In this document: piece by piece, positions 1-55,105 of the stretch
Layout of the letters: each line of letters starts with the position of its first letter
Position numbering within the stretch: position 1 is the stretch's first letter
Source: a virus
DNA length: 55,105 nucleotides
Reading direction: 5' to 3' (one strand)
UHGV virus genome: UHGV-0308106
Translations under genes and position numbers: made by a program
Notes under the pieces: model-generated
What the model saw: only the letters and a program-made list of their open reading frames with translations
Told to the model about the DNA's origin: nothing
Databases searched by the model: none

Positions 1-448
1 TGATACCTCTGTAACCACAATTTTGTTTAATTATCTCAACGTGCACATTTTCTGAACATACATGCGGCACGTGAATGTGTTAAACAATAGTAGATGACTT
101 TATCCGCAGTAATCAAAGGTTTTGAGTGAGCAACTCTGCGTCAGGAAAGGGCATTTTTCCTGAATATGCTCACATCATATAAAGAAATACAGATAAAGTT
201 ATTATCTGCTTGTGGGGGTGAATGCACTGACCGACCTATAAGGAAAGGCCAAACAAGAACACGGTTGCAAAAACCGTGCCCTTAAATATTGAATCTCTAT
301 TCAGAACACTTTCTTAAATTGTCATTTGGCATATTACGAACAATTCCGCGTAAAAACGTTCTGTTACGCTAAACCCTTATCCAGCAGGCTTTCAAGGATG
401 TAAACCATAACACTCTGCGAACTAGTGTTACATTGCGTGTAGCTTTGA

Positions 449-2215: not shown

Positions 2216-3334
2216 TCAGGCCACGTATTCCGGTTTCATATCCGCCAGGGTGATGCTGAATTGATCGTGCAGTTCATCGCCTAAGTGACGCTTTGAAGAT
2301 GCAAGCATGCGCTCGGCTTCAGCGAACCGTTCGGCTGCATGCGGCTCGTCGGGCTGGGGCAGGGATTTAATAGCCTCCTCAACCTTGTTGCGTGCATCCA
2401 CTAGGTAATAACGCTTTACGGCTTTGTTTTTCAGCTCGGTGAATAGTGCGGATCCCAGCGTAGCTTTCGCCGTTTCAATGTCGGCACGCAGCGATTTGGC
2501 GCTATCCACGTCCTGAGCAGATTCGATGCGTTCGCGGAAATCATCGGCAAGAGAGTCGACATTTACCGACGATTCCTGTGCGCTTTGCGTGGTTGTGACG
2601 GTGTCACCTGAGATATCAGCCAGGCTAACGCGTTGCGGCGTTGGGTTGATCTCTTTTTCTGTGCGCTGTTCAATCTCATCAGGGGTGTACACACCAAGAA
2701 CAACTGCAGGGCAATACAGGCGCGCCCAGTATTTGAGTGCCAGATAAGCGATCTGCTGTTTCGGGTTTGATACCCAAAGTGGAGAATTACGTGTGATTAC
2801 GCTGGAGAGGAAAACAGGCTCTCCCCAGGTGATATCACTTTCACCGCGAATAACGGCACCTACCCGTACCGACAGTCCTTGTTCATCAGCACTTTCCCAA
2901 CCGCGTACCATTTCTTTCTTGTCGTACGTCCCGCCACCTTTCGCAGGCTTTTTAACGGTTATCTCGCGGCTGCTGGCACATTTCGACCAGTCGCCCTCGT
3001 ACTCATAGTGAAAGCGGCCAACGATGGCGTTTGAGCTGGAGATCACCGCATTAACCAGTTGCGCTTCGTATCCCAGGACACCGTTAACCAGGTGCGTCTT
3101 TTGCGCCACGGCGTAAGGGTTCATACCCCACTGCATCGCCTGCATGATGATGGCCATGCAGTCTGCCGGATTGCCGCGGAGGTGCTCAGGCACCGTTACG
3201 GCTGCCTGTGCCATCAACCCGGCGACAGACTGAAGCTGGGTTAAAGCCTGCACGTTGAAAATGGCATTGCTGGCTGAGATCGTGTTTGGAGTCTGCTGTT
3301 CAGCGGTTACGATATTCGTGTTTTCCATCATCAT
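2216..3334 (-). CDS. single-strand annealing protein (Bet/RecT superfamily)
   Basis: 372-aa ORF immediately downstream of RecE-like gene; segment ADCMAIIMQAMQWGMNPY resembles the lambda Bet region DAQFIALLIVANQYGLNPW as recalled from memory. Confidence 0.65.
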   Translation of the reverse strand: MMMENTNIVTAEQQTPNTISASNAIFNVQALTQLQSVAGLMAQAAVTVPEHLRGNPADCMAIIMQAMQWGMNPYAVAQKTHLVNGVLGYEAQLVNAVISSSNAIVGRFHYEYEGDWSKCASSREITVKKPAKGGGTYDKKEMVRGWESADEQGLSVRVGAVIRGESDITWGEPVFLSSVITRNSPLWVSNPKQQIAYLALKYWARLYCPAVVLGVYTPDEIEQRTEKEINPTPQRVSLADISGDTVTTTQSAQESSVNVDSLADDFRERIESAQDVDSAKSLRADIETAKATLGSALFTELKNKAVKRYYLVDARNKVEEAIKSLPQPDEPHAAERFAEAERMLASSKRHLGDELHDQFSITLADMKPEYVA

Positions 3335-3339
3335 TCCCC

Positions 3340-6300
3340 TTATGCCTGAGTACGCAGCGCTTCAAGGCGGCGCAGGTCGAAGTCGTTCAGTTCGTCGGTG
3401 TAGTCAGCAGTGATTGGCGCTGGCCATTCACCTGTGTCGAATCCGGTTGCGATATTGCGCATCGCTTTGCGGTACTCGAGCATACCCAGCTCCAGTAGTT
3501 CAGCGGATGCCTCGATGATGGCGATCCAGTGGTAGTTCTCGTCTTTGTTGACGAAAATCCAGAAGAACTGATCCAGCGCTGCGGTTTCGCAGTACATAGC
3601 CGCGCTCAGGTGATAATCACGTTCAATAATTTCCCGGTGTAGCCTGGCGCGCAGGCTTTCCTGCTTAACATTCCACATGCTGATGGTTTTCAGGTCAGCA
3701 CCGATACGCACGCCGTCTAGGTCGATCTCAAGATCAGGGCGCACACGAACTTCCAGTCCCGTCTCCTCGTCAAAGCCAAAGTAGCTCACCTCAACGGCGC
3801 GGCTCGGGTGGGTTAGCAGCATGCCTGCGGTCGGGTGTGCCAGAAGCGCTTTTTGAATATTCAGCGCGGTGCTCAGCTGCTGGCGGGTGACCAGCACTTT
3901 TCCTTCCGGGTTATCGCGCCAGGCATCCAGCAGTTCGTCGGCAAATACGGCATCTGGTTTGACTGCCTTCACGGCCTGGATCATGTCTGCTTTGGTACCG
4001 GACACTTTCAGTGGTGCCGGTTTCTGTGCTTCCTGAGCCACAAGGTCAGGGTTGATGATTGCCAACTGCTCCAGCAGCGCGTCACGGCTGCCGCTGGTTT
4101 TAACCGGCGGCGGCAGGGTGGCGTTGTACTCTTTAATGCATGCCTTCATTGCCGTCGCCGTCTGCTTCTGGTCACCATCAATACGCTGGAAGTCAGCTGG
4201 CAGCGCCATATAGTTCTGTGCCGTTTCTTCCAGGTTAGCGCCAAGCGGAACCTGCGGCGGCAGGGTGGCGTTGTACTCTTCCAGTAACACCTTGATGTCG
4301 TCGGCAGACAGCAGCGCCGGCAGGCTGGCATTGTGCTCATCGATAAAGGCGCGCAGGGTCGCGGCCGTTGTGAATGCGCCTTCAGGGATCACCGGTTCAA
4401 CGCTGAATTCTGCGTCCAGTAGTTCAGGCTGCAACGCCAGCGCATGCACCAAGTTGCCCATGTCCAGCACCGCTGAGCGCTCTTTGACGATGGTTTTCTC
4501 TACGTGGCGCGCATTGAAGTACATCAGCGAAACGCGCGCATCTTTCACCTGGGTTGAGCTGATGCCGTTGGCGGCGTGGTAAACCTCGTTTGGCAGCCCT
4601 TCATAGCGGCCTGGCTCGAAATAAGCGGGATAAACAACAGCTGGTTCGTCAGATTGCGCTTCTGGCTCGGTTTGTGCTGCAACTGGTTCGGTTTGGCTTA
4701 CAGAATCGCTATTTTTGGCGACAGAATCCGTATTCTGGTTTACATCGTCCTTCTGGCTGGTATCTGACTCTTCACCAGACTCCAGACTGCTTTCGCCTGG
4801 CTGTACTTCATCACCAACATTTTTTTCATCACTGACAGTTTCTTGAACCTGCACATTGCTGGTGGTTTCCGTAGCCTGTTTCGTGCCATGAGTTGCTGAG
4901 TTCTGCAGTAAAGCCGTAACATCGAATATTCCGTTGCCGACATTTTTAACCAGTTCTTGTTCGGCTTTATGTGGTTGTGCTGTCGCTTCCTCTGCGCGGC
5001 GGCGTGCTTCTTCTTCACGTACGCGTTGCAGGTTCTCTTCGTGAGTGCAGAAGGATTTGCGCGGAGACTCCTTACCTTCAGGTTGGGGAATTTCCTGTGC
5101 TGCGGGTTCAGCCTCATGCAACGGCAATAACTCGACCGCGGAATTGAACGCGGCTGTCATGGTCTGGTTAACAAATTCCAGGTGAGCGACAGGAGTTAAA
5201 TGAATATTTTCCGGTGCGATACGTACCAGGTTAAAAATAGCCGTGCGGTTAACACCCAGAACGCCTGGCTGATTGCGCAGGATGTTGCTCCATGATTTCC
5301 ATGGTTCTTCTTTTTTGGTCACGATTTCTTTAGCGCGACGAAGAATGCTGCCCGGGATCTCGAAGTGGTTGAAGTCCATAGGCAGAAGGGCACATGCAAT
5401 CTCTAAATCGAGAGTGTCAAGGGTATGGTATGTATCAGGTCCACGGTCAGTGACGTAACCGCCGTTGGCATTGGTTCCGGAATCAGTACGCTGCACACTA
5501 CTGATGCGATTACCGGCGGCCCATTCGCGAACAAGGATACCGCGGTCGATGTGATCTGTAGCGAACCACAATTTCAAAAACTGGATTAAGGTTGCGAGTT
5601 CAGGGATTTTTCCATCGACAGGGAAGACTTTCTTAACGGCATTCACGACTTTATGAATATCGTGCTCAATGGCTTTTTTGAATGCTTCCACATTCTCAGC
5701 TGCCAGCAGCAGGTTCTGGACGTACGCGTCATCGGTGTCCATCTCAAGGCGGACAATCTCATTTTTCTGCCCTGCGTCGATGTGATAGAGATATTCACCA
5801 TCACCGATGAACTGAGCCAGTACGCGCTGGCGGAATGGCAGGGTGGCAACAACGATCAGGTTCGGTTGCTGTGTCTGCTGGGATTGCTCTTCGGTATCGA
5901 CTTCACCATCAACGACGCCACCTTCTGCCCGGCCGTTCTCGTCGGTCTGGATACCGTCCTCAACAGTGAGATCTTGACCAGTTGTAACGTCAGCAGCGTT
6001 GCTGGTTTCAGTTTTGAGCAACTGCAACTTACCACTGCGCCAGTCTTCTACCAGTTGATTGCGGTCACCGGCATCGGTGTTCACCCAGTCAGACATGAAT
6101 GCAGCGATCAATCTTGGTTCGTGCTCTTCGTCTGGTGTGAAAATGTCCTTAACCGCCCGAATCATTTTCCACTCAGCATTCAGGCTGAGTTTGGCGGTCG
6201 CGGGCACATCGTTCCTTGCCACAAGCAGGCTATGGAGATATGTATTGCCTTCATCCAGTGACATTTCGCTGGCAGCCAACTGCTGCTCTTTAGTGACGTG

Positions 6301-6729
6301 GGTTTGGTATTTATCGTTCATCAGATGGACGGCAAAGCGGACCGCTGGAGTACGGTTTTCAACCGGGACAATTTCGGACGCAGTCGCATCTTCAACGATT
6401 ACGGTCGGAGTAGGTGTGTAGGGGGCGTCAACGGAACCAGTAGACACACCAGCGGCTTTTGGCAGCCAGGTGCGCCCATCGTCCTGAAGCTCGTAGCGAT
6501 CACACCAGGTAAAATCAACTTCACCTTCTTTCGGCAGACCGTCGACAACTGGGAAATCAGTGCGAATCGGTTTGGCGTAGTCCTTACCCCGACCTGTTTC
6601 GATACCTGCATCTTCCAGCGCAACATCCAGCATCAGATTGGCGCGAGCCTCGGTTTTAGCAGTGAACCAGACCACTGCATCTTGCTTTCCGGATTTCTGA
6701 GTGGCTTTAACCACATTAAAGAATTCCAT
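3340..6729 (-). CDS. recE: RecE-like exodeoxyribonuclease VIII
   Basis: 1129-aa ORF; N-terminal TDFPVVDGLPKEGEVDFTW and GNRISSVQRTDSGTNANGG match my memory of E. coli RecE; long acidic low-complexity middle; C-terminal nuclease-like region; paired with annealing protein. Confidence 0.8.
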   Translation of the reverse strand: MEFFNVVKATQKSGKQDAVVWFTAKTEARANLMLDVALEDAGIETGRGKDYAKPIRTDFPVVDGLPKEGEVDFTWCDRYELQDDGRTWLPKAAGVSTGSVDAPYTPTPTVIVEDATASEIVPVENRTPAVRFAVHLMNDKYQTHVTKEQQLAASEMSLDEGNTYLHSLLVARNDVPATAKLSLNAEWKMIRAVKDIFTPDEEHEPRLIAAFMSDWVNTDAGDRNQLVEDWRSGKLQLLKTETSNAADVTTGQDLTVEDGIQTDENGRAEGGVVDGEVDTEEQSQQTQQPNLIVVATLPFRQRVLAQFIGDGEYLYHIDAGQKNEIVRLEMDTDDAYVQNLLLAAENVEAFKKAIEHDIHKVVNAVKKVFPVDGKIPELATLIQFLKLWFATDHIDRGILVREWAAGNRISSVQRTDSGTNANGGYVTDRGPDTYHTLDTLDLEIACALLPMDFNHFEIPGSILRRAKEIVTKKEEPWKSWSNILRNQPGVLGVNRTAIFNLVRIAPENIHLTPVAHLEFVNQTMTAAFNSAVELLPLHEAEPAAQEIPQPEGKESPRKSFCTHEENLQRVREEEARRRAEEATAQPHKAEQELVKNVGNGIFDVTALLQNSATHGTKQATETTSNVQVQETVSDEKNVGDEVQPGESSLESGEESDTSQKDDVNQNTDSVAKNSDSVSQTEPVAAQTEPEAQSDEPAVVYPAYFEPGRYEGLPNEVYHAANGISSTQVKDARVSLMYFNARHVEKTIVKERSAVLDMGNLVHALALQPELLDAEFSVEPVIPEGAFTTAATLRAFIDEHNASLPALLSADDIKVLLEEYNATLPPQVPLGANLEETAQNYMALPADFQRIDGDQKQTATAMKACIKEYNATLPPPVKTSGSRDALLEQLAIINPDLVAQEAQKPAPLKVSGTKADMIQAVKAVKPDAVFADELLDAWRDNPEGKVLVTRQQLSTALNIQKALLAHPTAGMLLTHPSRAVEVSYFGFDEETGLEVRVRPDLEIDLDGVRIGADLKTISMWNVKQESLRARLHREIIERDYHLSAAMYCETAALDQFFWIFVNKDENYHWIAIIEASAELLELGMLEYRKAMRNIATGFDTGEWPAPITADYTDELNDFDLRRLEALRTQA

Positions 6730-44292: not shown

Positions 44293-46560
44293 ATGAGCGG
44301 TAACGCAGATACGATTAAAGACTTCCTTGTTTCGCTGGGATTCGATATCGATCAGGCTGGCGCTAATAAGTTTGAAGCCGTGCTGAAAGGCGTTACCGCA
44401 AACGTTCTGAAGGTCGGCGCGGTGGTGGAAGGCGCAGCGCTGAGCATTGTCGGATTTACCACCCAGATCGCGAATGGTCTGGATAAAATTTACTGGGCAT
44501 CCCAACGGACGGGGGCCAGCGTCCAGGGCATCAAAGCGCTGGGCTATGCCGCGTCGCAAACCGGTGCCAGCGCCGAGTCGGCCATGTCCTCCCTCGAAGG
44601 GCTGGCCGGTTTCATGCGTAGCAATCCGGGGGCGGAAGGCTTCCTGAACCGTCTTGGTGTCCAGACCCGAGATGCCAGCGGAAAGATGCGTGATACTGCG
44701 GCCATCTTTACTGGCGTTGGGCAAAAGCTCAACAACATGCCGTATTACCGCGCGAAGCAATACGCGCAGATGCTTGGCATCGATGAAAACACGCTGATGG
44801 CGATGCGGCGCGGCATGAATGGCTTTACCGCCGATTACCAGTCTATGCTGCAAAAGACTGGGTTCAACGCTGATAAGGCGGCTGTGCAGTCCAATAAATT
44901 CATGACGTCCATGCGCGGGCTTACGTCGCTGTTCGGCATTATGCGGGACAAGATCGGCTCAAACCTCGCTGGTGGTCTTGCTGGTTCGCTGGACAGCCTG
45001 CGGCGGCGCATCCTCGACAACTTCCCGAAGATTGAAGAGACGCTGACCAGAGTTATTAAAGGCGTGATCTGGCTTGCGAACGCCTTCACGCGAATGGCGT
45101 GGCGGCTCATACAGGGCGCTGGCTCTGTCATTGACTGGTGGAAGCGTCTTGACGATGGCAGTAAAAATCTGCTGAAAATATTCGGTGCTCTACTTGTCGC
45201 ATGGCGTCTGCTTAATTCTGCGTTCCTGAAATCCCCGATTGGAATTATCACCACGCTGATTCTGGCGATCGGATTACTCTATGACGATTATCAGACGTGG
45301 AAAGAAGGCGGTAAAAGCCTGATTGACTGGTCCAAGTGGGAGCCTGCAATAGAAAAGGCGAAAAAGGCAATTCTCTGGCTGCGCGATAAGCTTCTGGGGC
45401 TGAAAGATTCTGTTGGTGGATGGCAGAACTCGCTGGAAATTTTGGCTACTTTCATCGCTGGGGTATGGGTAACAAAAGTATTGGGAGCATTCGCAAAAAT
45501 ATCCGGTCTTCCGATACCTCCATGGCTTAAATTATGGGGAGCGTATGCTGGTTACCTGGTTTCAGATCGTGAAAACATAAAAGCCAGTGCTAAATCATCT
45601 TTGGACTATACCAAAAGGAACATTGGTGATGCTCTTGCTACGGTTGGCATCAAAACCGACCTTGGGCGAAAAGATGTTAGCGAGGTAAGAGAATGGCCCG
45701 CATGGATGGATTGGCTGCATGGTGGCCCAGGTAAGATTATTCGTCAGGCGCAAAGCAATGGCGTCGTTTATGGCGATAATGTTCAGCCTGACATTCCCGG
45801 GGCGGAACAGCATGTTCGTAGTAATGAAATTGCCCCGCATGAAAGAGATGAAATAAAAAACCGTCAGCAGGCTGCTAATGGTTATCTTGAAAAAATCTCA
45901 GACGGGATTGCCAAAATCGGTAATTTATTTTTCTCCCCGGCTGGAGCTGCTGAAATCTCTCCAAATATATCGGGTGACCCCTCCCAGTTTGCGCAATCAG
46001 TCAAACGTCCACAGGCCACAGCCCAGGGCAAAGTATTGCTCGACTGGATGGGGCCAATGTTCAATAAACTTGAGTCGCTTTATCAACTTCCAGCTGGTCT
46101 ATTGAAAAGTGTGGCGATAACCGAGTCAGGTGGTAACCAGTTCGCCATGTCCGGCGCGGGTGCAAAGGGGCTGTTCCAGTTCATGGATGGCACGGCGCGA
46201 GACATGGGCCTGCGTGGTAACGATGTGTTCGACCCGGAAAAGTCAGCTCAGGCAGCCGCTAAGTACCTTAGCCAGCTATTGCGGCAGAACGGCGGAGACC
46301 TTAGCAAAGCACTTGCATCATATAACTGGGGAATCGGGAACGTTCAACGTTATGGAATGGGGCTAATGCCGCAGGAAACGCGCAATTACATTCCGAAAGT
46401 AATGAGCAATATGCCCACCAGCGCCCCGGTGATTCAGCAGGAAACGAACATTAACATCCACGGCGTTTCCGATCCTCGCGAAGCTGCCCGTTTGACTGTT
46501 GACCGTCAAAAGGGTGTGAATTCACAGTTAACCCAGCAACTCCCCGCAGGACCGAGATAA
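44293..46560 (+). CDS. tail tape measure protein with C-terminal lytic transglycosylase domain
   Basis: 755-aa; hydrophobic central segments; SLT-like ITESGGNQFAMSGAGAKGLFQFMDGTARDMGL...ASYNWGIGN. Confidence 0.8.
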   Translation: MSGNADTIKDFLVSLGFDIDQAGANKFEAVLKGVTANVLKVGAVVEGAALSIVGFTTQIANGLDKIYWASQRTGASVQGIKALGYAASQTGASAESAMSSLEGLAGFMRSNPGAEGFLNRLGVQTRDASGKMRDTAAIFTGVGQKLNNMPYYRAKQYAQMLGIDENTLMAMRRGMNGFTADYQSMLQKTGFNADKAAVQSNKFMTSMRGLTSLFGIMRDKIGSNLAGGLAGSLDSLRRRILDNFPKIEETLTRVIKGVIWLANAFTRMAWRLIQGAGSVIDWWKRLDDGSKNLLKIFGALLVAWRLLNSAFLKSPIGIITTLILAIGLLYDDYQTWKEGGKSLIDWSKWEPAIEKAKKAILWLRDKLLGLKDSVGGWQNSLEILATFIAGVWVTKVLGAFAKISGLPIPPWLKLWGAYAGYLVSDRENIKASAKSSLDYTKRNIGDALATVGIKTDLGRKDVSEVREWPAWMDWLHGGPGKIIRQAQSNGVVYGDNVQPDIPGAEQHVRSNEIAPHERDEIKNRQQAANGYLEKISDGIAKIGNLFFSPAGAAEISPNISGDPSQFAQSVKRPQATAQGKVLLDWMGPMFNKLESLYQLPAGLLKSVAITESGGNQFAMSGAGAKGLFQFMDGTARDMGLRGNDVFDPEKSAQAAAKYLSQLLRQNGGDLSKALASYNWGIGNVQRYGMGLMPQETRNYIPKVMSNMPTSAPVIQQETNINIHGVSDPREAARLTVDRQKGVNSQLTQQLPAGPR

Positions 46561-47162
46561 TGGATATTTTATCAGCGATTTTTCGCCAGCAATCACGGCG
46601 AATTGGCCTGCTGATCCCCAGCGTGGTCGTTTCCGAAAAGCATTCTGATGCGCTCGAAATTACTGAGCACCCGGTGGAGAAGCCAACAACGAATAGCGCC
46701 TCGGGTTTCATCGCCGATCATGCGTATAAGCGCCCCAGCGAAGTCACAATGGAATGCGGCTTCGCTGGGGGCGGTTCGTTGCTGGACTTCATTGATACAT
46801 CTTCAATCGGCCTCAGCGCCGGACTGAGCCCGAAAGAGACCTATCAGCAACTGCTGGATCTCCAGTCCTCCCGGGTGCCGTTCGATGTGGTGACCGGGAA
46901 GCGGGTGTACAGCAATATGCTGGTGAGAGCCATCGAGGTGACAACGGACAAAACCAGCGAGAACGTGCTGAACTGCACGCTTACCCTGCGTGAAGTGATC
47001 ATGTCGCAAACGCAGAGCGTTAGCGTTGCTGATAAATCAGATATGCAGGATGGCGTCAGCACATCGGCGGTGCAAAATTCCGGGACGAAATCCACTACAC
47101 CGCCAAACGAATCTTTGCTGAGCCAGCTGGGCGGAAGCGTTACATCAGCATTCGGGGGATGA
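46560..47162 (+). CDS. tail/baseplate protein, hypothetical
   Basis: 200-aa, ATGA overlap with tape measure. Confidence 0.4.
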   Translation: MDILSAIFRQQSRRIGLLIPSVVVSEKHSDALEITEHPVEKPTTNSASGFIADHAYKRPSEVTMECGFAGGGSLLDFIDTSSIGLSAGLSPKETYQQLLDLQSSRVPFDVVTGKRVYSNMLVRAIEVTTDKTSENVLNCTLTLREVIMSQTQSVSVADKSDMQDGVSTSAVQNSGTKSTTPPNESLLSQLGGSVTSAFGG

Positions 47163-47163
47163 T

Positions 47164-47469
47164 ATGCAGTTTAACGAAATACCGCTTTCTCCTGACAATC
47201 AGCAGTTCCGCGTTTTGCTGGGCAATACTACGTATACGCTCAGGATCATCTGGCGCGATGCGGCTGGTTGGATTATGGACGTGATGGATAGCGGCGGTGC
47301 CGCGCTTCTCTCTGGCGTACCTCTACTGACCGGCGTGAACCTTTTACGACAATTTCCACAGCTTGGCATTGATGGTGCGCTGGTGGTGGCGACCGATAAG
47401 GGCGCACCAGACGAGCCCACCAAAACCAACCTCGGCACATACAGCCACCTCATTTTCGTGCAGGAGTAG
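47164..47469 (+). CDS. baseplate protein, hypothetical
   Basis: 101-aa ORF. Confidence 0.4.
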   Translation: MQFNEIPLSPDNQQFRVLLGNTTYTLRIIWRDAAGWIMDVMDSGGAALLSGVPLLTGVNLLRQFPQLGIDGALVVATDKGAPDEPTKTNLGTYSHLIFVQE

Positions 47470-47471
47470 AA

Positions 47472-48536
47472 ATGTCTCTTAACTGGATGCGCCATTTTGA
47501 GTTGCAGCTGTTGGACCAGAACGGGCAGGGTATTTCCCTGTCTGATTTTAAGGTCACGTTCCAGATCGAGTGGGCAGATACACGCTGGCCGCGCGTGGCA
47601 AACGTGAAAATTTACAACCTTTCGACCGATACCACGAACAAGATACTGGGGCAGGAGTTTGCAAAAATTCGCATCATTGCCGGGTATGACGGTATTGCGC
47701 CGGATGTTGATGCGAGCCAGGTTGGTGTCGCCCGGGAGATTTCACCAGACCAGGTAGGGCAGGTGAACGGTCAGAACTACGGCCTGATATTTGACGGTGA
47801 TATTCGCTTCACCGTCACCGGGAAGGACAACATCACCGATTCCTGGGTGCTGATTCAGGCCATCAGTAACCACGAAGCGTTCCTCTACGCGACTACCATC
47901 ACCACGCTTGCCGCTGGCTATACCGTTGCGGATCTGCACCGGGCGACGATGCAGGATTTCAACGCGTTCGGCGTGACACAGGGCATTACCGGCGATTTTC
48001 CTGATACCGTGTTTCCTCGTGGCCGCGCGATTTACTCATCCAGCCGCAACGTGATGGATAATATTGCTGCGCAGTGCAAAGCGACATGGCAACTGGTGGA
48101 TGGTCAGGTCCAGATGGTGCCGGAGGATAAATATATTCACGAAGCCATTGTGTTGAATGCCAATACTGGCCTGATCGGTATGCCGCAACAAACGATGGGC
48201 GGCGGAGTAAACGTGCGGTGCCTGATAAACCCAAACATCCGTATTAATGGTCTTATCCAGCTCGATCAGGCTTCGGTGTACCGCGCCACGCTCGGCAATA
48301 GCGAAATAGCACAGTCGCCCGGGCGTATCACCGAAACAGAAGAGAACGGCAACCGTGTGCTGACCGGCACGACGTCACAGGCTGCCAGCATTGCGACGGA
48401 TGGCGTTTATATCGTCAAAGCTATCGACTATACTGGCGACACCAGAGGTCAGGCGTGGTACATGGATTTGATGTGTTTTGCGCGTGGCGCTCGTGATCTT
48501 TATAGCCCGAAAGCAATGCAAGGGACGACGAATTAG
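47472..48536 (+). CDS. baseplate hub-like protein
   Basis: 354-aa; position before gpV-like spike, as Mu gp44; paralog in nested element. Confidence 0.5.
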   Translation: MSLNWMRHFELQLLDQNGQGISLSDFKVTFQIEWADTRWPRVANVKIYNLSTDTTNKILGQEFAKIRIIAGYDGIAPDVDASQVGVAREISPDQVGQVNGQNYGLIFDGDIRFTVTGKDNITDSWVLIQAISNHEAFLYATTITTLAAGYTVADLHRATMQDFNAFGVTQGITGDFPDTVFPRGRAIYSSSRNVMDNIAAQCKATWQLVDGQVQMVPEDKYIHEAIVLNANTGLIGMPQQTMGGGVNVRCLINPNIRINGLIQLDQASVYRATLGNSEIAQSPGRITETEENGNRVLTGTTSQAASIATDGVYIVKAIDYTGDTRGQAWYMDLMCFARGARDLYSPKAMQGTTN

Positions 48537-48548
48537 TGAGGTGGGGCC

Positions 48549-48893
48549 GTGAGACATTTACTTTGCACTGTTACCGTGTTCGCGGTGCTTATATCAGCAC
48601 CCGCTTTTGCGGATCAGCAATGTGGTGATTTTAAAATCCATTGGGCAGATGATGGCTTAGCCAGAATCAATGGCGCAAAGCCAGAAATGCAAAAAATCAC
48701 CTTCCTGAAAAACAAAGGCGATTATAACAATATCAAGATGGATTGGCGTATGGCTACCGATCAGCCTGGAAGATGGGTTGGTCTTGAGTACATCAATCGA
48801 AACGGCAAAGCCATTCTCAACGCACAGTGGTTGCAAGCCAGCATGGATTCGCCGCGTCAGTATGCAACATACGACTGCCGAAAAGTAAAATAG
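48549..48893 (+). CDS. secreted small protein
   Basis: 114-aa; signal peptide MRHLLCTVTVFAVLISAPAFA; two Cys; C-terminal DCRKVK. Confidence 0.5.
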   Translation: MRHLLCTVTVFAVLISAPAFADQQCGDFKIHWADDGLARINGAKPEMQKITFLKNKGDYNNIKMDWRMATDQPGRWVGLEYINRNGKAILNAQWLQASMDSPRQYATYDCRKVK

Positions 48894-48916
48894 CCCGCCA
48901 GATAGGCGGGCATGCG

Positions 48917-49207
48917 TCAAAAATATTGAGCTTTAATTATAATAAACACAATAATTACGAACAGGATGTTTCTAATTATTTTTTGCTTATGAGTAAGTTG
49001 TTTTTTTTCTGTCGATTTCCCGGGAGAGTAAAGGTTAGTGGTATGCGACAGCCCCGTGCCGGGAAGGCCATTTGTCATCTTTACGCCTTTTTTCCCGATG
49101 TTAATGGTGGAACCTTTACCACCAATTGAAGTGCTTACTCCGCTTTTACTAATGTTGATCGCGAGTCCGGGCGCAATCCGGATTCTTTTACGAAATCTAA
49201 ATCCCAT
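48917..49207 (-). CDS. DUF4236-like protein (antisense moron)
   Basis: 96-aa; RIAPGLAINISKSGVSTSIGGKGSTINIGKKG; C-terminal TM; AT-rich; hairpin terminator at 48895-48912. Confidence 0.45.
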   Translation of the reverse strand: MGFRFRKRIRIAPGLAINISKSGVSTSIGGKGSTINIGKKGVKMTNGLPGTGLSHTTNLYSPGKSTEKKQLTHKQKIIRNILFVIIVFIIIKAQYF

Positions 49208-49429
49208 TTGTTACTCCTGTAGTCAATAATGCGATGGTGCAGGTCCACTCTATGGCGGCTTCATGGCTGAAATTGATTTTCAATGCTTACTTGTTGCAAA
49301 CATATCCTAATACACCTTGTGAATGTGTGCCATTGCAGCGGAAAAGCCTTACTTCACACTGATGTAGCTTAGTTACTAAGAGATAATTGATACCAAACCA
49401 GCTTCGGCTGGTTTTTTTATGGGGGTTTT

Positions 49430-50170
49430 ATGCCAATTCCAACTCAATCACAGATCGGCGGTGAGCAGCAGACCGCGCAGGCCATTGCCGATTCGGTGTC
49501 GACCCAGATGCGCGTAGCGATGCCCGGCATCATTCAGTCGTTCGATCCTGAGACTGTTACCTGCACAGTAGAGGTGGCGCTACGCGGTATTGTTGGCGAT
49601 GGATCCACCGAATTAAAACCGCTGGTGGATGTGCCGGTCATCTTCCCGCGCGGCGGCGGTTGCACGCTGACCTTTCCGGTAAAAGAAGGCGACGAGTGCC
49701 TCCTGATTTTTGCTGACCGTTGCATCGATTTTTGGTGGCAGAGCGGCGGCGTTCAGGAGACCGTCGACCCGCGCCAGCATGACTTATCTGATGCGTTCGC
49801 CATCGTTGGCCCGCAGTCGCAAGCACGGAAAATCAGCGGTATCAGTACCAGCGCCGCGCAGCTGCGAACCGATGATGGTGCGGCGTTTGTAGAAGTCGCC
49901 GCAGGACATAACATCACCATTAAAACACCGGGCCAGCTTACAGCTACGGCTGAAGGTGGAACGACAATCACATCCCCGACTATCACGCTGAACGGCAACG
50001 TAACGATTAATGGCAACTTGTCTCAGGGAATGGGCGAAAGCGGCGGTACTGCGACGATGCTTGGGCCGGTGACGGTAACGAATGACGTAACAGCTTCTGG
50101 TATCAGTGTCGCCACGCATAAACATGGCGGAGTACAGACTGGCGGGGGAACTACCGGAGGGCCGCAATAA
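49430..50170 (+). CDS. baseplate spike protein gpV-like
   Basis: 246-aa; FPRGGG, C-terminal THKHGGVQTGG; followed by W/J/I-like genes. Confidence 0.75.
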   Translation: MPIPTQSQIGGEQQTAQAIADSVSTQMRVAMPGIIQSFDPETVTCTVEVALRGIVGDGSTELKPLVDVPVIFPRGGGCTLTFPVKEGDECLLIFADRCIDFWWQSGGVQETVDPRQHDLSDAFAIVGPQSQARKISGISTSAAQLRTDDGAAFVEVAAGHNITIKTPGQLTATAEGGTTITSPTITLNGNVTINGNLSQGMGESGGTATMLGPVTVTNDVTASGISVATHKHGGVQTGGGTTGGPQ

Positions 50171-50523
50171 TGCGATACCGTCGCGAAGATACTGAAGGCG
50201 ATTACACTTTCGGCCAGGGTGACGATACTTTCCTTATCGACAGTCCGGAATGTGTCGCCCAGGCCGTAAAAACCCGTTTCGAGCTGTGGCGCGGTCAGTG
50301 GTTTCTCGATCTGACGGAAGGCACGCCGTATGTTCAGTCAGTGCTTGGGAAGCAGCGATCAGATGTCTACATCCTGGCTATACGCGAACGCATACAGGAT
50401 ACACCGGGCGTTCTGTCGATTCTTTCCTTCGATACCAATTATGACGGCACCAGCCGTCGCGTCACCTTCACTTCCTCCATTGACACAATCTACGGCCAGA
50501 CGACTGTAACAAGCGAGGCATAA
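50170..50523 (+). CDS. baseplate protein (gpW/Mu gp46-like)
   Basis: 117-aa, ATGA-coupled between gpV-like and gpJ-like genes. Confidence 0.5.
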   Translation: MRYRREDTEGDYTFGQGDDTFLIDSPECVAQAVKTRFELWRGQWFLDLTEGTPYVQSVLGKQRSDVYILAIRERIQDTPGVLSILSFDTNYDGTSRRVTFTSSIDTIYGQTTVTSEA

Positions 50524-51723
50524 ATGGCTTTGAACCTCGACACGCTGGGGCTATCGGCAACGGTAACCGCCCAGGGGATTAGTGCGCCTGATTACCAGAC
50601 AATCCTAGATACACTGACCAGCTATTTCAGGCAGATTTACGGTAGTGATGCCTACCTCGAACCAGACAGCAAAGACGGGCAGATGGTCGCGCTGGTGGCT
50701 CTTGCCGTGCATGACGCTAACAACACCGCTATCGGGATCTACAACTCTTTTTCACCGACGACAGCGCAGGCCGCAGCGCTTAGCAGCAATGTGAAAATTA
50801 ACGGGATCACGCGAAAAGTAGCGACAAACTCTACTGCTGACCTTCTGTTAACCGGTACGGCAGGCACGACTATCACGAATGGCTCCGCACGGGATAAAAA
50901 CGGCATTATCTGGAATTTTCCCGCAAGTGTAGCGATCGGCGTTGATGGTACTGTGCTGGTGACGGCCACATGTGCGAATAGCGGTTCGGTTGCGGCGCTG
51001 GCCGGGACTATTACCACTATCAACACCCCGACCCGAGGTTGGGTGTCGGTAACCAATCCAGTTGCGGCTACTGTCGGTTCACCAGCCGAAACCGACGCAG
51101 AGCTGCGCATTCGGCAGGGGCAAAGCGTCGCGCTACCATCGATCACACCGTTTGAAGGTGTCGACGGTGCTATCGCTAATGTTGCTGGCGTGACACGTCA
51201 CAAACTATATGAGAACGACACTGGGGCAACCGACAGCAACGGGCTGCCGCCACACTCTATTTCCGCCATCGTCGATGGAGGGGATGTTACCGAGATAGCC
51301 CAAACAATCCGGGGGAGTAAAGGGCAGGGAACCGCAACTTACGGTACAACTTCTGTCACCGTGCCGGATACTTACGGTAATCCTCACGTCATCAGTTTTT
51401 CGCGTTCTACCGATGTGCCAATTTTTGTAGCCATTACCCTGAAAGTTTTTACCGGGTATACATCTCAAATCGGCGAGCAGATAAAACAGGCTGTTGCCGA
51501 TTATATAAATGGCCTGGCAATTGGCGATGACGTTCTGCTGAGTCGTATTTATTCCCCGGCAAACCTTGGCGTGGTAAGCGGAGGCAGTGCTCGCTATTAC
51601 GACATTCAGGAGCTGCTCATCGGCAAATCCTCTGACTCAGTCGCAAGCGGAAATATCGATATTGCTTATGACGAATCTGCGTCATGCGTTGCGAGTCACG
51701 TCACTATCACGGTGACCTCATGA
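50524..51723 (+). CDS. baseplate J-like protein
   Basis: 399-aa; ETDAELRIRQ motif; position typical of gpJ. Confidence 0.7.
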   Translation: MALNLDTLGLSATVTAQGISAPDYQTILDTLTSYFRQIYGSDAYLEPDSKDGQMVALVALAVHDANNTAIGIYNSFSPTTAQAAALSSNVKINGITRKVATNSTADLLLTGTAGTTITNGSARDKNGIIWNFPASVAIGVDGTVLVTATCANSGSVAALAGTITTINTPTRGWVSVTNPVAATVGSPAETDAELRIRQGQSVALPSITPFEGVDGAIANVAGVTRHKLYENDTGATDSNGLPPHSISAIVDGGDVTEIAQTIRGSKGQGTATYGTTSVTVPDTYGNPHVISFSRSTDVPIFVAITLKVFTGYTSQIGEQIKQAVADYINGLAIGDDVLLSRIYSPANLGVVSGGSARYYDIQELLIGKSSDSVASGNIDIAYDESASCVASHVTITVTS

Positions 51724-52400
51724 GCAAATACACCGAACTGATCACTAACTACCATGCTACCAAGCCACTCTTTTTTGACCATATAGATCTGAGCACCCGC
51801 CCGCTGATTGATGTGTCCAGCACTATGTCAGGGCTTGTAACAGCCTTCGATATCGATACGGCGGTTGGCGTGCAACTCGATATCCTCGGCCTGTGGATTG
51901 GGCGTAGTCGTATAGTCAGCCAGCCAATTAGCGGCGTTTATTTCAGCTGGGACACTGACGGGCTCGGATATGACCAGGGCATCTGGCAAGGGCCATATGA
52001 TCCTGATTCTGGCTATACGACGCTGAGTGATGAGACGTACCGCATCATTCTGAAAGCGAAAATCGCTATCAACAACTGGGATGGTCGGAACGACTCTCTG
52101 CCTCCCATCCTTGACGCTGCTACCGCAGGCTCTGGACTGAAGATGCAGATCGTCGATAACCAGGACATGACGATATCGGTCTGGGTTTTTCCCGAGACTG
52201 ATATTTCTGATGTGTCACTCGAACTGATAGCCGCTATCAAACAGGGTTATCTCACCGTTAAAGCTGCTGGTGTATGGGCTGGCGGCGTTGAAACACCCTC
52301 AGTCGAAACACCGTCCGAAGGAACAAAATTCTTTGGATTTGACATGGATAACGAATACATCGCCGGTTTTAATGACGGCGCATGGGGGAGATTACTTTAA
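51720..52400 (+). CDS. tail protein (gpI/YmfQ-like)
   Basis: About 226-aa from ATG 51720 (ATGA overlap with J-like gene). Confidence 0.5.
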   Translation: MSKYTELITNYHATKPLFFDHIDLSTRPLIDVSSTMSGLVTAFDIDTAVGVQLDILGLWIGRSRIVSQPISGVYFSWDTDGLGYDQGIWQGPYDPDSGYTTLSDETYRIILKAKIAINNWDGRNDSLPPILDAATAGSGLKMQIVDNQDMTISVWVFPETDISDVSLELIAAIKQGYLTVKAAGVWAGGVETPSVETPSEGTKFFGFDMDNEYIAGFNDGAWGRLL

Positions 52401-53026
52401 TGGCTGGAACTAATGATTTTAAAGCGTTTGCGACAGATGCTAATGCAAATGTTACCTCGCAGGAGGAATGGGAGACGCTAACCGCACTGAAGAAAGGATT
52501 CTCCTCGGGTAAAGCATCCAGCGCACAGGTCAGTAAAGCGCTGCGCCAACCGTCGACGATGGCGGCTGTACTGGGGCAGTTTATCGCGAACGCCGAACTG
52601 GACGCGCTCGATGATGGTGACGTTGATGGACTGGTGGCAAAGCTGGCGACAGCGATTACCACAAACCTTGGTTTAGGAGAAGCGGCGAAAAGGGATGTGG
52701 GCACAGGAGATAATCAGATACCGGATATGGGAGCATTCGCTTCTGGTTCGGGATGGTTCAGGCTACCAGGTGGATATATTGTTCAGTTTGGCACTTTTTC
52801 AGGAAACACGACCCGCTTTATCAGTGGACACTTCCCTATACCATTCCCTAATCAGCCGATGGTTTCAGTCAGTGTTATGTCTGATGCCGTTCAGTCAGAC
52901 CCGTCGAATCCTGCCCCGCAGGTTTTGTCTGTAAATTTTGAACATATCAGTAATTCAGCGTGGCGTGTGGCAACCAGTGATATCTCACAGCAATACAGAT
53001 TCAGTTATATTTCGATAGGACGGTAG
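52400..53026 (+). CDS. tail fiber protein (constant N-terminus plus variable C-terminus)
   Basis: About 208-aa; crossover-site peptide LGLGEAAK near residue 90 mirrors VGLGEGSA in the inverted alternative gene. Confidence 0.6.
   Translation: MAGTNDFKAFATDANANVTSQEEWETLTALKKGFSSGKASSAQVSKALRQPSTMAAVLGQFIANAELDALDDGDVDGLVAKLATAITTNLGLGEAAKRDVGTGDNQIPDMGAFASGSGWFRLPGGYIVQFGTFSGNTTRFISGHFPIPFPNQPMVSVSVMSDAVQSDPSNPAPQVLSVNFEHISNSAWRVATSDISQQYRFSYISIGR
52660..52681. repeat. candidate invertase crossover site (left)
   Basis: acaaaccttggtttaggagaa is near-inverse of the 54472-54497 site. Confidence 0.4.
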
Positions 53027-53028
53027 AA

Positions 53029-53469
53029 ATGCAGAAATATATTTTCAGTGCCGATAAAAATGCGTTTTTCCCTGTGGAGCTTAAAATCGCTTATCAGGAA
53101 TCCGGCGAATGGCCCGATGATGGAATCGAAATTGACGACACTGTTGCCGCCGAATTTATGAAGGAAGCACCAGAAGGAAAATACAGAGGTGTCATCGACG
53201 GAATGCCAGCATGGATTGATATTCCACCGCCAACTCATGAGGAACAAATTGCCGCAGCCGAACTGGAAAAGCAGCAATTGATTAATCAGGCCAACGATTA
53301 TATGAACAGTAAACAATGGCCTGGTAAAGCGGCTATTGGTCGTCTGAAAGGTGACGAGCTGGCGCAATATAATTTGTGGCTGGATTATCTGGACGCACTG
53401 GAGCTGGTCGATACTTCCGGTGCGCCAGATATTGAATGGCCTACACCTCCGGCAGTTCAGGCCAGATGA
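53029..53469 (+). CDS. tail fiber assembly protein
   Basis: 146-aa; C-terminal DIEWPTPP typical of Tfa chaperones. Confidence 0.7.
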   Translation: MQKYIFSADKNAFFPVELKIAYQESGEWPDDGIEIDDTVAAEFMKEAPEGKYRGVIDGMPAWIDIPPPTHEEQIAAAELEKQQLINQANDYMNSKQWPGKAAIGRLKGDELAQYNLWLDYLDALELVDTSGAPDIEWPTPPAVQAR

Positions 53470-54049
53470 CATCCGGCGCGGTGCTGGTATCTGTTGCCGT
53501 CACCGCGTCAATGTAATCCAGCACAGCGTTAAGGCGGGTTGTTTCTGCCTGCGTCAGTTTACGTCCGGCCTGCAATTTCAGTTGAATCAGACTGATGGAA
53601 GCCATAGCAGCATCAATCAGCGACTGGCGCTGTGCTTCTGCCGCGTCTACTGCGGCGCTATATTGTGCCTCGGTATCGGTCACCCATTTCTCTCCATCCC
53701 ATTTATCGTATGGCGTTAATGGGGCGATAGTGGTGGTTCCTTCCGGGTATTCTCCCAACTGTGAAATAGTCACAGGTTTGCCAGTAGCCGTGCTGTAAAC
53801 GGTTTCGCCGCGATGGTCTGCAACGTATTCCCAACCGGTCAAATCAGCCGTCCGGCAGACAGCAAAGCCGTCCTTTTTGCTGATTGGCGCATCCACGCAT
53901 GAATTGCCTGGAACGCCAACGCCAACGGGAAGATATTCTAACGATGCGGAAGTAAACTCCATCGTTTCTCCGTTGTAGTTGTAAACAGTGATAAAGCCAG
54001 CTTCCGTGGCGAACCCGTTTTCATCCAGGGTGATTTCTTTTGTGGTCAT
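53441..54049 (-). CDS. alternative tail fiber assembly protein
   Basis: 202-aa on opposite strand; C-terminal DVIWPELP; convergent with 53029-53469. Confidence 0.7.
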   Translation of the reverse strand: MTTKEITLDENGFATEAGFITVYNYNGETMEFTSASLEYLPVGVGVPGNSCVDAPISKKDGFAVCRTADLTGWEYVADHRGETVYSTATGKPVTISQLGEYPEGTTTIAPLTPYDKWDGEKWVTDTEAQYSAAVDAAEAQRQSLIDAAMASISLIQLKLQAGRKLTQAETTRLNAVLDYIDAVTATDTSTAPDVIWPELPEV

Positions 54050-54504
54050 TATACTGCCCTTACAATGTAGTTGAATGCAATGTTGCGCGGACGGGTTTCT
54101 GAACCACCTGGCGCGTTGGTCGCTATAGTTTTCAAGTTAATTCTCGCGCCAGTGGCATCAGCCCCCACGACGTATGGGCCGCCCGTTCCGTCTGGACCAG
54201 TCGCCCCCCATATTTCTTGGAAATAGTGGTCGTGGGCTTTAAACGTATCACTTTGTAACGAAAGGATTGTTCGCCCTGAATCCACACCACGCCCGTCATC
54301 CCAGCCACGAATGAATTCACCGCGTAAATCAGGCAATTTATTTGTCGGGTAAGCCTTTGCCAGTTCCGGGTATTCTTCAGCAGAAAAATCCGCACCATTG
54401 CATTTCAGCCAGCCTGTTGGCGGTGTGGCTGAAGGCCACGGAACAGGCACCCCAACAGGTAATGCTGAGCCTTCTCCCAAACCAACCTTTTTTATAACCA
54501 TCAA
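54049..54504 (-). CDS. alternative tail fiber variable C-terminal segment
   Basis: 151-aa on opposite strand; N-terminus spans the invertase crossover site. Confidence 0.55.
   Translation of the reverse strand: MMVIKKVGLGEGSALPVGVPVPWPSATPPTGWLKCNGADFSAEEYPELAKAYPTNKLPDLRGEFIRGWDDGRGVDSGRTILSLQSDTFKAHDHYFQEIWGATGPDGTGGPYVVGADATGARINLKTIATNAPGGSETRPRNIAFNYIVRAV
54472..54497. repeat. candidate invertase crossover site (right)
   Basis: TTCTCCCAAACCAACCTTTTTTATAA resembles hix/gix sites as recalled (TTCTTGAAAACCAAGGTTTTTGATAA). Confidence 0.4.
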
Positions 54505-54556
54505 AAATCTGGTGATGCTTCGCCGTTTCTCCTGTTTTCATAACAGGAGAAATCCC

Positions 54557-55105
54557 ATGATTTACGGTTATGCCCGAGTATCAACAAACCACCAGGACAC
54601 TGAATTGCAACTAACGGCGCTCAAGTCAGCGGGTTGTGAGAAAATTTTTGAAGAGCATGCCAGCGGGAGGAAATCGAATCGGCCGGTTCTAAAACGGCTG
54701 ATCGCCACTATGCAGCCGGGGGATGAACTGGTGGTCTGGAAGCTGGACAGGATAGGCCGCAACGTTCTGCATGCGCTGTTGATGTTCCAGCAGTTACAGG
54801 AAAAGGGTATCAACTTCCGCAGTATTACCGATGGCGTGGATCTCAAAACAGCCAGCGGCCGCTATAACTTTCGTAACATCCTTTCCGCAGCACAATATGA
54901 ATCTGATCTTAATAGCGAACGTACCTTAGCAGGGCTGGCCGTAGCCAGGGCAAAAGGGCGAGTTGGTGGTCGCAGGCCTAAGTTCACGGATGAGCAATGG
55001 TGGGAAATGGGGGAGCGGATGGCAACCGGTGAATCACGACAAAGCGTATCAAAAACATATGGAGTAGGGCTCTCAACTCTGTATAAAAAGTTTCCAGCTA
55101 GCTGA
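54557..55105 (+). CDS. serine DNA invertase (Gin/Hin/Pin family)
   Basis: MIYGYARVSTNHQD...QLTAL...VVWKLDRIGRN; AGGAG SD; ORF ends at last base of window. Confidence 0.9.
   Translation: MIYGYARVSTNHQDTELQLTALKSAGCEKIFEEHASGRKSNRPVLKRLIATMQPGDELVVWKLDRIGRNVLHALLMFQQLQEKGINFRSITDGVDLKTASGRYNFRNILSAAQYESDLNSERTLAGLAVARAKGRVGGRRPKFTDEQWWEMGERMATGESRQSVSKTYGVGLSTLYKKFPAS

Follow-up and report, generated by a model that had tools for sequence, protein, structure and literature searches.

Does this prophage carry two tail-fibre genes, or one gene with two interchangeable ends? The window, by which we mean the whole stretch of 55,105 nt analysed here, is an E. coli prophage, apparently complete, with a contractile-tail module and located at the phi80 attachment site. 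Its attL core (ACACTTTCTTAAATTGT, 306..322, plus strand) is identical to the phi80 attP core and is followed by a phi80-type integrase gene (449-1699). Positions 303-2171 are 99.3% identical to the phi80 att-int region, and the attR core is found 124 nt beyond the window end in one public contig, L011. Near the far end of the window the first-pass annotation had proposed an invertible tail-fibre segment: convergent pairs of fibre and Tfa genes, flanked by nearly inverse sites and followed by an invertase of the Gin/Hin/Pin type. We conclude that the segment is very probably a working, or very recently working, programmed inversion system of the Pin/Gin type that switches the receptor-binding tip of the prophage fibre.

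The fibre gene in its assembled form (52400..53026, plus strand; 208 aa, delimited by ORF and Pfam analysis) consists of two parts. The constant N-terminal part of 89 codons (52400-52667, plus strand) ends inside a 26-bp recombination site, and the variable C-terminal part that follows the crossover contains a Gp53-like_C domain (Pfam PF21882, E = 1.5e-8). Exactly this 208-aa protein is encoded on 26 public contigs. The gene is followed by that of a Tfa chaperone for the Gp53-like tip (53029..53469, plus strand; 146 aa; Pfam Caudo_TAP, E = 3.5e-34). On the minus strand lie the gene of a second Tfa chaperone (53441..54049; 202 aa; Caudo_TAP, E = 1.7e-31) and that of the alternative tip which it would serve, a fibre C-terminus with a Collar domain (54049..54504; 151 aa; Pfam Collar, E = 2.2e-15). 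In the window the latter ORF is detached from the constant part, and just its first 6-7 codons lie outside the segment. The two Tfa genes overlap by 29 nt at their 3' ends. The invertible segment (52668..54485, no strand assigned) measures 1818 bp from centre to centre and comprises two convergent cassettes, in each of which a fibre C-terminus is accompanied by a Tfa chaperone of its own. The four genes are placed and paired as first annotated, and the Pfam assignments agree. NCBIfam gave a family-level name to none of the five proteins of the locus; the invertase reached only scores under the curated cut-offs, and the remaining four were unmatched. A scan for promoters and terminators gave nothing above background (for promoters, 7 sites versus 3.3 +/- 1.8 expected).

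The flanking sites, also anticipated by the first-pass annotation, are two 26-bp elements of the hix/gix/pix type in inverted orientation with matching central dinucleotides, TT and AA. The left one (52656..52681, plus strand; TTACCACAAACC-TT-GGTTTAGGAGAA, centre 52668-52669) is inside the fibre gene; the right one (54472..54497, plus strand) reads TTCTCCCAAACC-AA-CCTTTTTTATAA, with its centre at 54484-54485. Together they form the longest inverted repeat of the region (27 nt, 78% complementary). A pattern derived from the shared inner half occurs exactly twice in 55 kb (0.01 expected), and a hix/gix-type consensus finds the same 2 places at up to 3 mismatches (0.00 expected). The outer half of the left site is identical across 10 related loci, while that of the right site is degenerate, having CC where hix/gix sites show GG. 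The resemblance between the peptides of the two fibres at the predicted crossover, pointed out earlier, is real, and it arises because the recombination site itself is read as protein: AAC CTT GGT TTR GGA GAA encodes N-L-G-L-G-E. Additional crossover sites, as in a Min-like multi-site system or a shufflon, were considered and dropped, the window having only two sites at up to 3 mismatches. A third, partial site was suggested by a 15-nt inverted match between 52675-52689 and 54519-54533. We treat it as a chance match because its right-hand copy belongs to an invertase leader conserved in all members of the invertase clade, and because about 0.3 such matches are expected by chance in 2.8 kb by our own estimate.

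If the segment is flipped in silico at the site centres, the constant 89 residues become joined in frame to the Collar C-terminus, giving a protein of 234 aa. The locus has its crossover within a fibre gene, a chaperone for each tip and a reading frame that is kept both ways. The predicted 234-aa recombinant exists exactly, as WP_410232536.1 of Escherichia sp. WS553. The contig that carries it, L010, differs from the flipped window at 1 of 7657 nt; its segment lies on the opposite strand at 100% identity and its flanks keep their orientation. Over 8706 nt, L011 and L014 are 100% identical to the window as it stands, unflipped. Looking for both orientations had been the check suggested with the original proposal, and both are present in public assemblies of different isolates. 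One polymorphic base of the inner half-site, A in one arm (52675) and G in the other, moves with the segment and the outer halves stay, which confines the exchange to 52668-52674, a stretch that includes the predicted centre. The flip that separates L010 from the window must, given their near-identity, be very recent, and within a site of 26 bp it was exact to 7 bp.

More distant comparisons give the same picture. Ten related prophages that occupy the same chromosomal locus have flanks of fixed orientation, and the segment between them lies either way round, with the breakpoints at the centres. Both orientations occur among the relatives L001-L009, whose inverted stretches end at the first and the last position of the segment, and the strand of homology between the window and its relatives switches exactly at 52668. 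Exchange at the site centres with both orientations represented, as in the Hin/Gin/Cin/Pin (Din) inversion systems, is therefore seen across public isolates. The window orientation was found on 26 contigs versus a single contig with the flipped form, and from this imbalance switching may be slow or biased. Contigs that end inside the segment (L010, L015 and L016) might be taken as a sign of mixed orientations. We dropped this idea: the ends fall in or near the Tfa genes and not at the 26-bp sites, and they are better explained by the recurrence of Tfa sequences in other prophages.

The switch probably operates as follows. The constant 89-codon part, whose end lies inside the 26-bp site, is transcribed from the tail operon, and only the cassette joined to it is translated as a full fibre. 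By analogy with Mu, P1 and e14, the adjacent PinL-type invertase would bind the two inverted sites, cut at the central TT/AA, rotate the ends by 180 degrees and rejoin them. The flip exchanges the Gp53-like tip (208-aa fibre) for the Collar tip (234-aa fibre) together with the matching chaperone, and host range would be expected to change. The tip domains, Gp53-like_C and Collar, are unrelated, which fits different receptors.

A role in the virion may not be the only one. Perhaps the benefit of the switch goes also, or even chiefly, to the lysogen, the detached ORF supplying in one of the orientations a free fibre-tip protein that blocks the adsorption of other phages. Whichever way the segment lies, the detached cassette is entered by a short ORF, of about 150 aa or of 125 aa, that has its ATG at 54501-54499 on the minus strand and begins in the outer half-site. 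There is also a precedent, the e14 equivalent StfE2, which is reported to block T2 adsorption (PMC12529663). However, a convincing Shine-Dalgarno sequence or promoter for the detached ORF was not found, and the virion role suffices to explain the switch because this prophage, unlike e14, looks intact. We regard a benefit of this kind to the lysogen as improbable.

Which enzyme performs the inversion? The gene that follows the segment (54557..55105, plus strand; ATG at 54557; 182 aa) encodes a serine DNA invertase of the phi80 PinL type, with Pfam matches to Resolvase (3.7e-39) and HTH_7 (5e-9). It aligns with the Gin structure 3uj3 over residues 1-181 without gaps (E = 3e-56), with YARVS9T conserved. 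It thus bears out the invertase first annotated here and has what is expected of a small serine DNA invertase: a serine nucleophile (Ser9, as in Gin; Ser10 in Hin), a C-terminal HTH and a length within about 180-195 aa. It is 98.9-99.5% identical to pinL of phi80, mEp237 and HK225 (98.9% to that of phi80). Din-family invertases have high mutual identity and cross-complement one another functionally; the window protein is outside this range, being 51-55% identical to Gin, Cin and PinE, whereas those three are 77-83% identical to one another. It belongs to a separate PinL clade, the best 120 database matches being all at least 79% identical to it. The clade is widespread in Enterobacterales.

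It could be argued that the segment does invert, but in trans, by the Pin-type enzymes of other prophages such as e14 PinE and Qin PinQ, and that PinL is inactive or otherwise employed. In its inner half-sites and centre the locus is identical to the repeat of the e14 P segment (the inner 16 nt of the right site match TTGGTTTGGGAGAAGG; PMC12529663), and that segment was inverted experimentally both by PinE and by PinQ, which is only 38% identical (PMC12529663). Many E. coli strains hold further invertases of the Pin type, which recognise the same inner half-sites. Moreover, several regulatory positions of PinL are occupied differently in Gin, Pin and Cin, and phi80 retains pinL next to a mere relic of the segment. 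Against this, the clade has outer half-sites of its own (TTACCACAAACC and TTATAAAAAAGG), conserved across genera beside its invertases. The PinL clade is also under purifying selection with invariant catalytic residues, and its invertase adjoins a two-cassette fibre segment in 4 of the 5 further genera examined. These observations make catalysis solely in trans quite improbable, and PinL is probably the enzyme of its own segment.

That the two arrangements are a frozen relic, alternatives of old standing spread between prophages by homologous recombination without ongoing inversion, might be supported by the high mosaicism of the cassettes among relatives (77-95% identity) and by the dominance of one orientation in public assemblies, but it is extremely improbable given that L010 and the flipped window differ at one base, far from the segment, and that such precision is not expected of general homologous recombination on a 26-bp repeat.

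If PinL inverts the segment, how is its activity controlled? Immediately ahead of the gene is a perfect 11-bp hairpin (54526..54552, plus strand; TTTCTCCTGTT-TTCAT-AACAGGAGAAA; folding energy -25.5 kcal/mol, z = -4.5) whose 3' arm contains the invertase Shine-Dalgarno sequence, 4 nt ahead of the ATG. The stem is invariant and the loop variable in homologues from Salmonella, Klebsiella, Serratia, Morganella and Citrobacter; the phi80 record annotates the same hairpin as repeat IR3. No such hairpin was found upstream of gin, pinE or cin. It probably limits translation of the invertase.

In the classical systems, inversion is activated by Fis bound at a recombinational enhancer that lies in cis, in the first ~100 nt of the invertase gene; for cin, the P1 annotation places it at nt 19-90. 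The putative counterpart by position in the window is 54575..54646 (plus strand; likewise nt 19-90 of the gene). Its proximal core is conserved (GTATCAACAAACCAC). In the distal core, the G and C of gin, pinE and cin are replaced by C and A: at nt 71 all 7 clade genes have C or T and none has G, and the window allele has A at nt 85. Variation at synonymous sites dips at nt 1-54 and 73-108 both in the PinL clade and in the gin/pinE/cin group, the two being similarly conserved at these sites. Fis sites are too degenerate to allow a decision from sequence.

The protein itself also differs in the relevant places. [quoted passage not shown] The first three, which sit in helix 1 of the DNA-binding domain, are Q/R/L also in Gin, PinE and Cin but Glu150, Glu153 and Arg154 in the window allele. 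In helix B, where Gin, PinE and Cin have three basic residues, the window allele has Lys46, Arg47 and Ala50, the last in place of Hin Lys51. Some members of the PinL clade retain Q/R/L; the third basic residue of helix B is kept in 0 of 13 aligned. At the position of Phe105, which locks the Hin dimer, the clade invariably has Asn, and the residues that correspond to His107 and Met109 of Hin and to Met114 of Gin are Arg, Ile and Tyr; the window allele shares the Asn, Arg and Ile. The Hin mutation F105N results in Fis-independent inversion in vivo (PMC4513852).

With E/E/R in place of Q/R/L and an unconserved distal Fis core, the classical mechanism may not hold here as far as regulation is concerned. 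Asn at position 105, the other regulatory substitutions and the Fis contacts missing from the window allele suggest, very tentatively, that the PinL clade is a natural variant that inverts without classical activation by Fis and enhancer, or with a rewired version of it; we consider this doubtful. Control of the switching rate may come instead from the clade-specific hairpin that buries the ribosome-binding site of the invertase. If true, such regulation would be a natural counterpart of the engineered hyperactive mutants of Hin and Gin, and it is the sole point of wider reach here. For annotation, it matters that the fibre gene of a common family of E. coli prophages has two products. One of them is as a rule wrongly annotated as an independent short 'phage tail protein'. 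Differences in orientation among assemblies at this segment are biological rather than assembly errors.

The kind of switch is a textbook one, since phage Mu and the e14 prophage do likewise. Its closest working relative is the P segment of e14 in E. coli K-12, with the same order of baseplate gene, short fibre, Tfa, inverted Tfa, inverted fibre C-terminus and invertase, the same 29-nt overlap of the Tfa genes, the same TT centre and an identical inner repeat (TTGGTTTGGGAGAAGG). This identity with a segment of proven inversion also speaks for inversion in the window. Lengths are also close: 1797 bp in e14 versus 1818 bp in the window for the segment, and 209 aa for StfP versus 208 aa for the fibre. 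TfaE and StfE are 78% and 58% identical to the inverted cassette of the window and TfaP is 57% identical to the 146-aa Tfa, and with cassettes in common the invertases of the two prophages may cross-talk within one cell. In contrast, PinE and the window invertase are only 55% identical, the outer half-sites differ, and neither the constant part nor the Gp53-like cassette of the window shows similarity to StfP. Furthermore, e14 is a defective lambdoid remnant, whereas the window is an apparently complete prophage with a contractile-tail module.

The pinL region of phi80, as well as those of mEp237 and HK225, has the same hairpin, the same right-hand site and the same position by the attachment site. 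The tail of phi80 is non-contractile, and what remains of the segment is a collar-domain pseudogene and 63 nt of the start of the Gp53-like cassette. With just these fragments left, pinL in phi80 is without an intact substrate, and the window shows the intact form of a switch that survives as a relic in this classical phage.

With the G segment and Gin of Mu and the C segment and Cin of P1 the logic is shared: a constant N-terminus, two convergent cassettes of variable fibre part and chaperone, recombination sites of 26 bp around a 2-bp centre and, next to the segment, a small serine invertase that shares the fold. The window invertase is 51-52% identical to Gin and Cin, which are about 77% identical to each other; at 1.8 kb the segment has about half the length of that of Mu or P1 (about 3.1 and 4.2 kb, respectively) or less, the constant part, of 89 codons, is much shorter, and the centre is TT versus GA. 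The Tfa proteins of the window, of the lambda-gpK type, have no BLAST similarity to Mu U or U'. Hin and the hix sites of Salmonella represent the same enzyme family and site architecture; Hin flips a promoter, whereas the system described here flips coding cassettes.

The 1818-bp segment between the centres of two 26-bp sites (52668-54485), which the first-pass annotation proposed to be invertible, is found in both orientations in public genomes. By exact-sequence look-up, the 208-aa fibre protein of the present orientation occurs in 26 E. coli contigs, and the 234-aa protein predicted after inversion was found as WP_410232536.1 of Escherichia sp. WS553. The contig encoding the latter (L010) matches the window at 100%, on the same strand over 46400-52682 and on the opposite strand over 53097-54485; a base-by-base comparison with the window flipped in silico shows a single mismatch, at 49149, across 7657 nt. 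L011 and L014, two further records, are identical to the unflipped window for 8706 nt. The inner half-sites differ at one base only (A at 52675), and this base follows the segment, whereas the outer halves keep their place; the exchange must therefore fall within 52668-52674, an interval that contains the predicted centre. Ten related prophages, all at the same chromosomal locus beside yciI-tonB, and Citrobacter phage Omnitron have fixed flanks and the segment in either orientation, the strand of homology switching exactly at the site centres. Two related prophages (L001 and L002) are inverted relative to each other, with 93% identity across nearly the whole segment. The finding is real, rightly placed and rightly interpreted. 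We infer that switching is ongoing within one culture, that the resident enzyme catalyses it and that the two forms differ in host range.

Three short-read assemblies (L010, L015 and L016) end inside the segment, at window equivalents 53097, 53476 and 53385. These breaks are in or near the Tfa genes, away from the 26-bp sites, and their likely cause is that Tfa sequence is repeated in other prophages.

The flanking near-inverse sites noticed earlier proved to be the longest inverted repeat of the region (52656-52682 paired with 54471-54497). They are two 26-mers, TTACCACAAACC-TT-GGTTTAGGAGAA on the left (52656-52681) and TTCTCCCAAACC-AA-CCTTTTTTATAA on the right (54472-54497). The pattern of their shared inner half has two matches in 55 kb, both at these sites (0.01 expected), and a hix/gix-type consensus, allowed up to three mismatches, finds the same two places only (0.00 expected). 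Since neither scan of the 55-kb window gives a third site, this is a simple two-site switch. Strand exchange by serine invertases such as Hin and Gin requires matching central dinucleotides; TT and AA, the two centres here, match after inversion of one site. In-silico inversion of the segment keeps the fibre frame and yields the 234-aa protein, with 89 constant residues, then ...TTNLGLGEGSALPVGV... leading into the Collar-domain tip. The peptide resemblance pointed out at the crossover is the site itself translated.

The two fibre and Tfa pairs and the invertase gene were found as ORFs where the first-pass annotation had put them. The fibre gene (52400-53026, plus strand, 208 aa), whose tip is Gp53-like_C in Pfam, is followed by the first Tfa chaperone gene (53029-53469, plus strand; Caudo_TAP). 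On the minus strand are the second Tfa gene (53441-54049; Caudo_TAP) and an ORF for a fibre C-terminus (54049-54504; Collar). The 3' ends of the convergent Tfa genes share 29 nt (53441-53469), exactly as do those of tfaP and tfaE in e14 and of the Tfa genes in all relatives examined. The recombinase gene (plus strand) runs from an ATG at 54557 to a stop codon at the window's last base. Baseplate genes (Baseplate_J, DUF2612/wedge) lie upstream of the fibre gene, which thus closes a contractile-tail operon. A minus-strand ATG at 54499-54501 lies in the outer half of the right-hand site and starts a short reading frame that runs into the detached cassette and is about 150 or 125 aa long, depending on the cassette. 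The stfE start is its analogue in e14, where the chimeric product reportedly blocks adsorption of phage T2. Within the forward tail operon there is also a small reverse gene (48917-49207, minus strand; DUF4236 in the annotation of relatives). In its place one relative (L006) has a gene for an EACC1 'effector-associated constant component', and two others (L005 and L008) have hypothetical genes on the forward strand; the position looks like a slot for variable cargo.

The window holds an entire prophage, located at the phi80 attachment site. After 305 nt of bacterial flank comes an attL core (306-322) with the phi80 attP core sequence, then a region 99.3% identical to phi80 att-int, the phi80-type int gene lying within 1-2171. 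The window breaks off at the stop codon of the invertase gene; in L011 the attR core lies 124 nt past that end. Whereas phi80 has a non-contractile tail, here its int-att-pinL is joined to a contractile-tail module, and the structural module is kin to Omnitron and SEN34-like phages. Beside the integrase is a RecT/RecE-type recombination module (2216-6729, minus strand; ORFs of 372 and 1129 aa), whose names follow the annotation in E. coli prophages that are near-identical.

The invertase is of the Gin/Hin/Pin type, as had been suggested (Pfam Resolvase and HTH_7), but Gin, Cin and PinE are only 51-55% identical to it, against 77-83% among themselves. It belongs to a large clade, the PinL clade, present in Escherichia, Citrobacter, Klebsiella, Enterobacter, Salmonella, Serratia and Morganella. 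A two-cassette fibre segment adjoins the clade invertase in four of five loci examined from further genera; the fifth, from Klebsiella, has the outer half-site only. Decayed switches are seen in a Klebsiella P2-like prophage (L023, 3900-4000; outer half-site) and in phi80 (L027, 4733-4940; cassette fragments). Both retain the clade invertase, so the gene outlives its substrate.

Ahead of the invertase gene, a clade-specific perfect 11-bp hairpin (54526-54552; z = -4.5) holds the Shine-Dalgarno sequence in its 3' arm and so buries the ribosome-binding site. Among clade homologues from five further genera the loop varies but the stem does not; no such hairpin lies upstream of gin, pinE or cin. 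It is plausibly a brake on invertase synthesis. The phi80 annotation calls it 'IR3' only.

Helix E opens with GRYNFRNILSAAQYESDLNSERT throughout the clade, the corresponding sequence of Gin, Pin and Cin being GRFFFHVMGALAEMERELIxERT. Phe105, His107 and Met109 of Hin become Asn, Arg and Ile in the clade, and Met114 of Gin becomes Tyr. Phe105 and Met109 keep the Hin dimer locked in its inactive form, and Hin carrying F105N inverts DNA in vivo independently of Fis (PMC4513852). The third basic residue of helix B is absent from every aligned clade member, and the Fis-contacting Gln/Arg/Leu (PMC3798978) are Glu/Glu/Arg in the window allele. The divergent positions are codons 46-50, 103-114 and 150-154 of 54557-55105 (plus strand). 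These differences from Gin, Pin, Cin and Hin fall where Fis/enhancer dependence is known to be controlled. The candidate enhancer, at the position of the one annotated in cin (nt 19-90), keeps the proximal core and has a distal core without the flanking G and C; its synonymous-site conservation is like that of gin, pinE and cin.

The switch is another instance of a textbook kind, and the sole lead beyond routine is how the PinL clade has diverged in its regulatory features. A systematic survey of programmed inversions found tail-fibre genes among the targets and DUF2612 genes enriched as neighbours (PMC9881135), so the architecture has already been picked up in bulk. The invertase shares 98.9% identity with phi80 PinL and 99.5% with its mEp237 counterpart; phi80 pinL adjoins only fragments of a fibre cassette, and the window has the intact version. 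The closest working system is the e14 P segment, whose inversion by PinE and PinQ was shown experimentally (PMC12529663). It shares with the window the gene order, the length of the Tfa overlap, the TT centre and the sequence of the 16-nt inner repeat, and its TfaE and StfE are 78% and 58% identical to their counterparts here.
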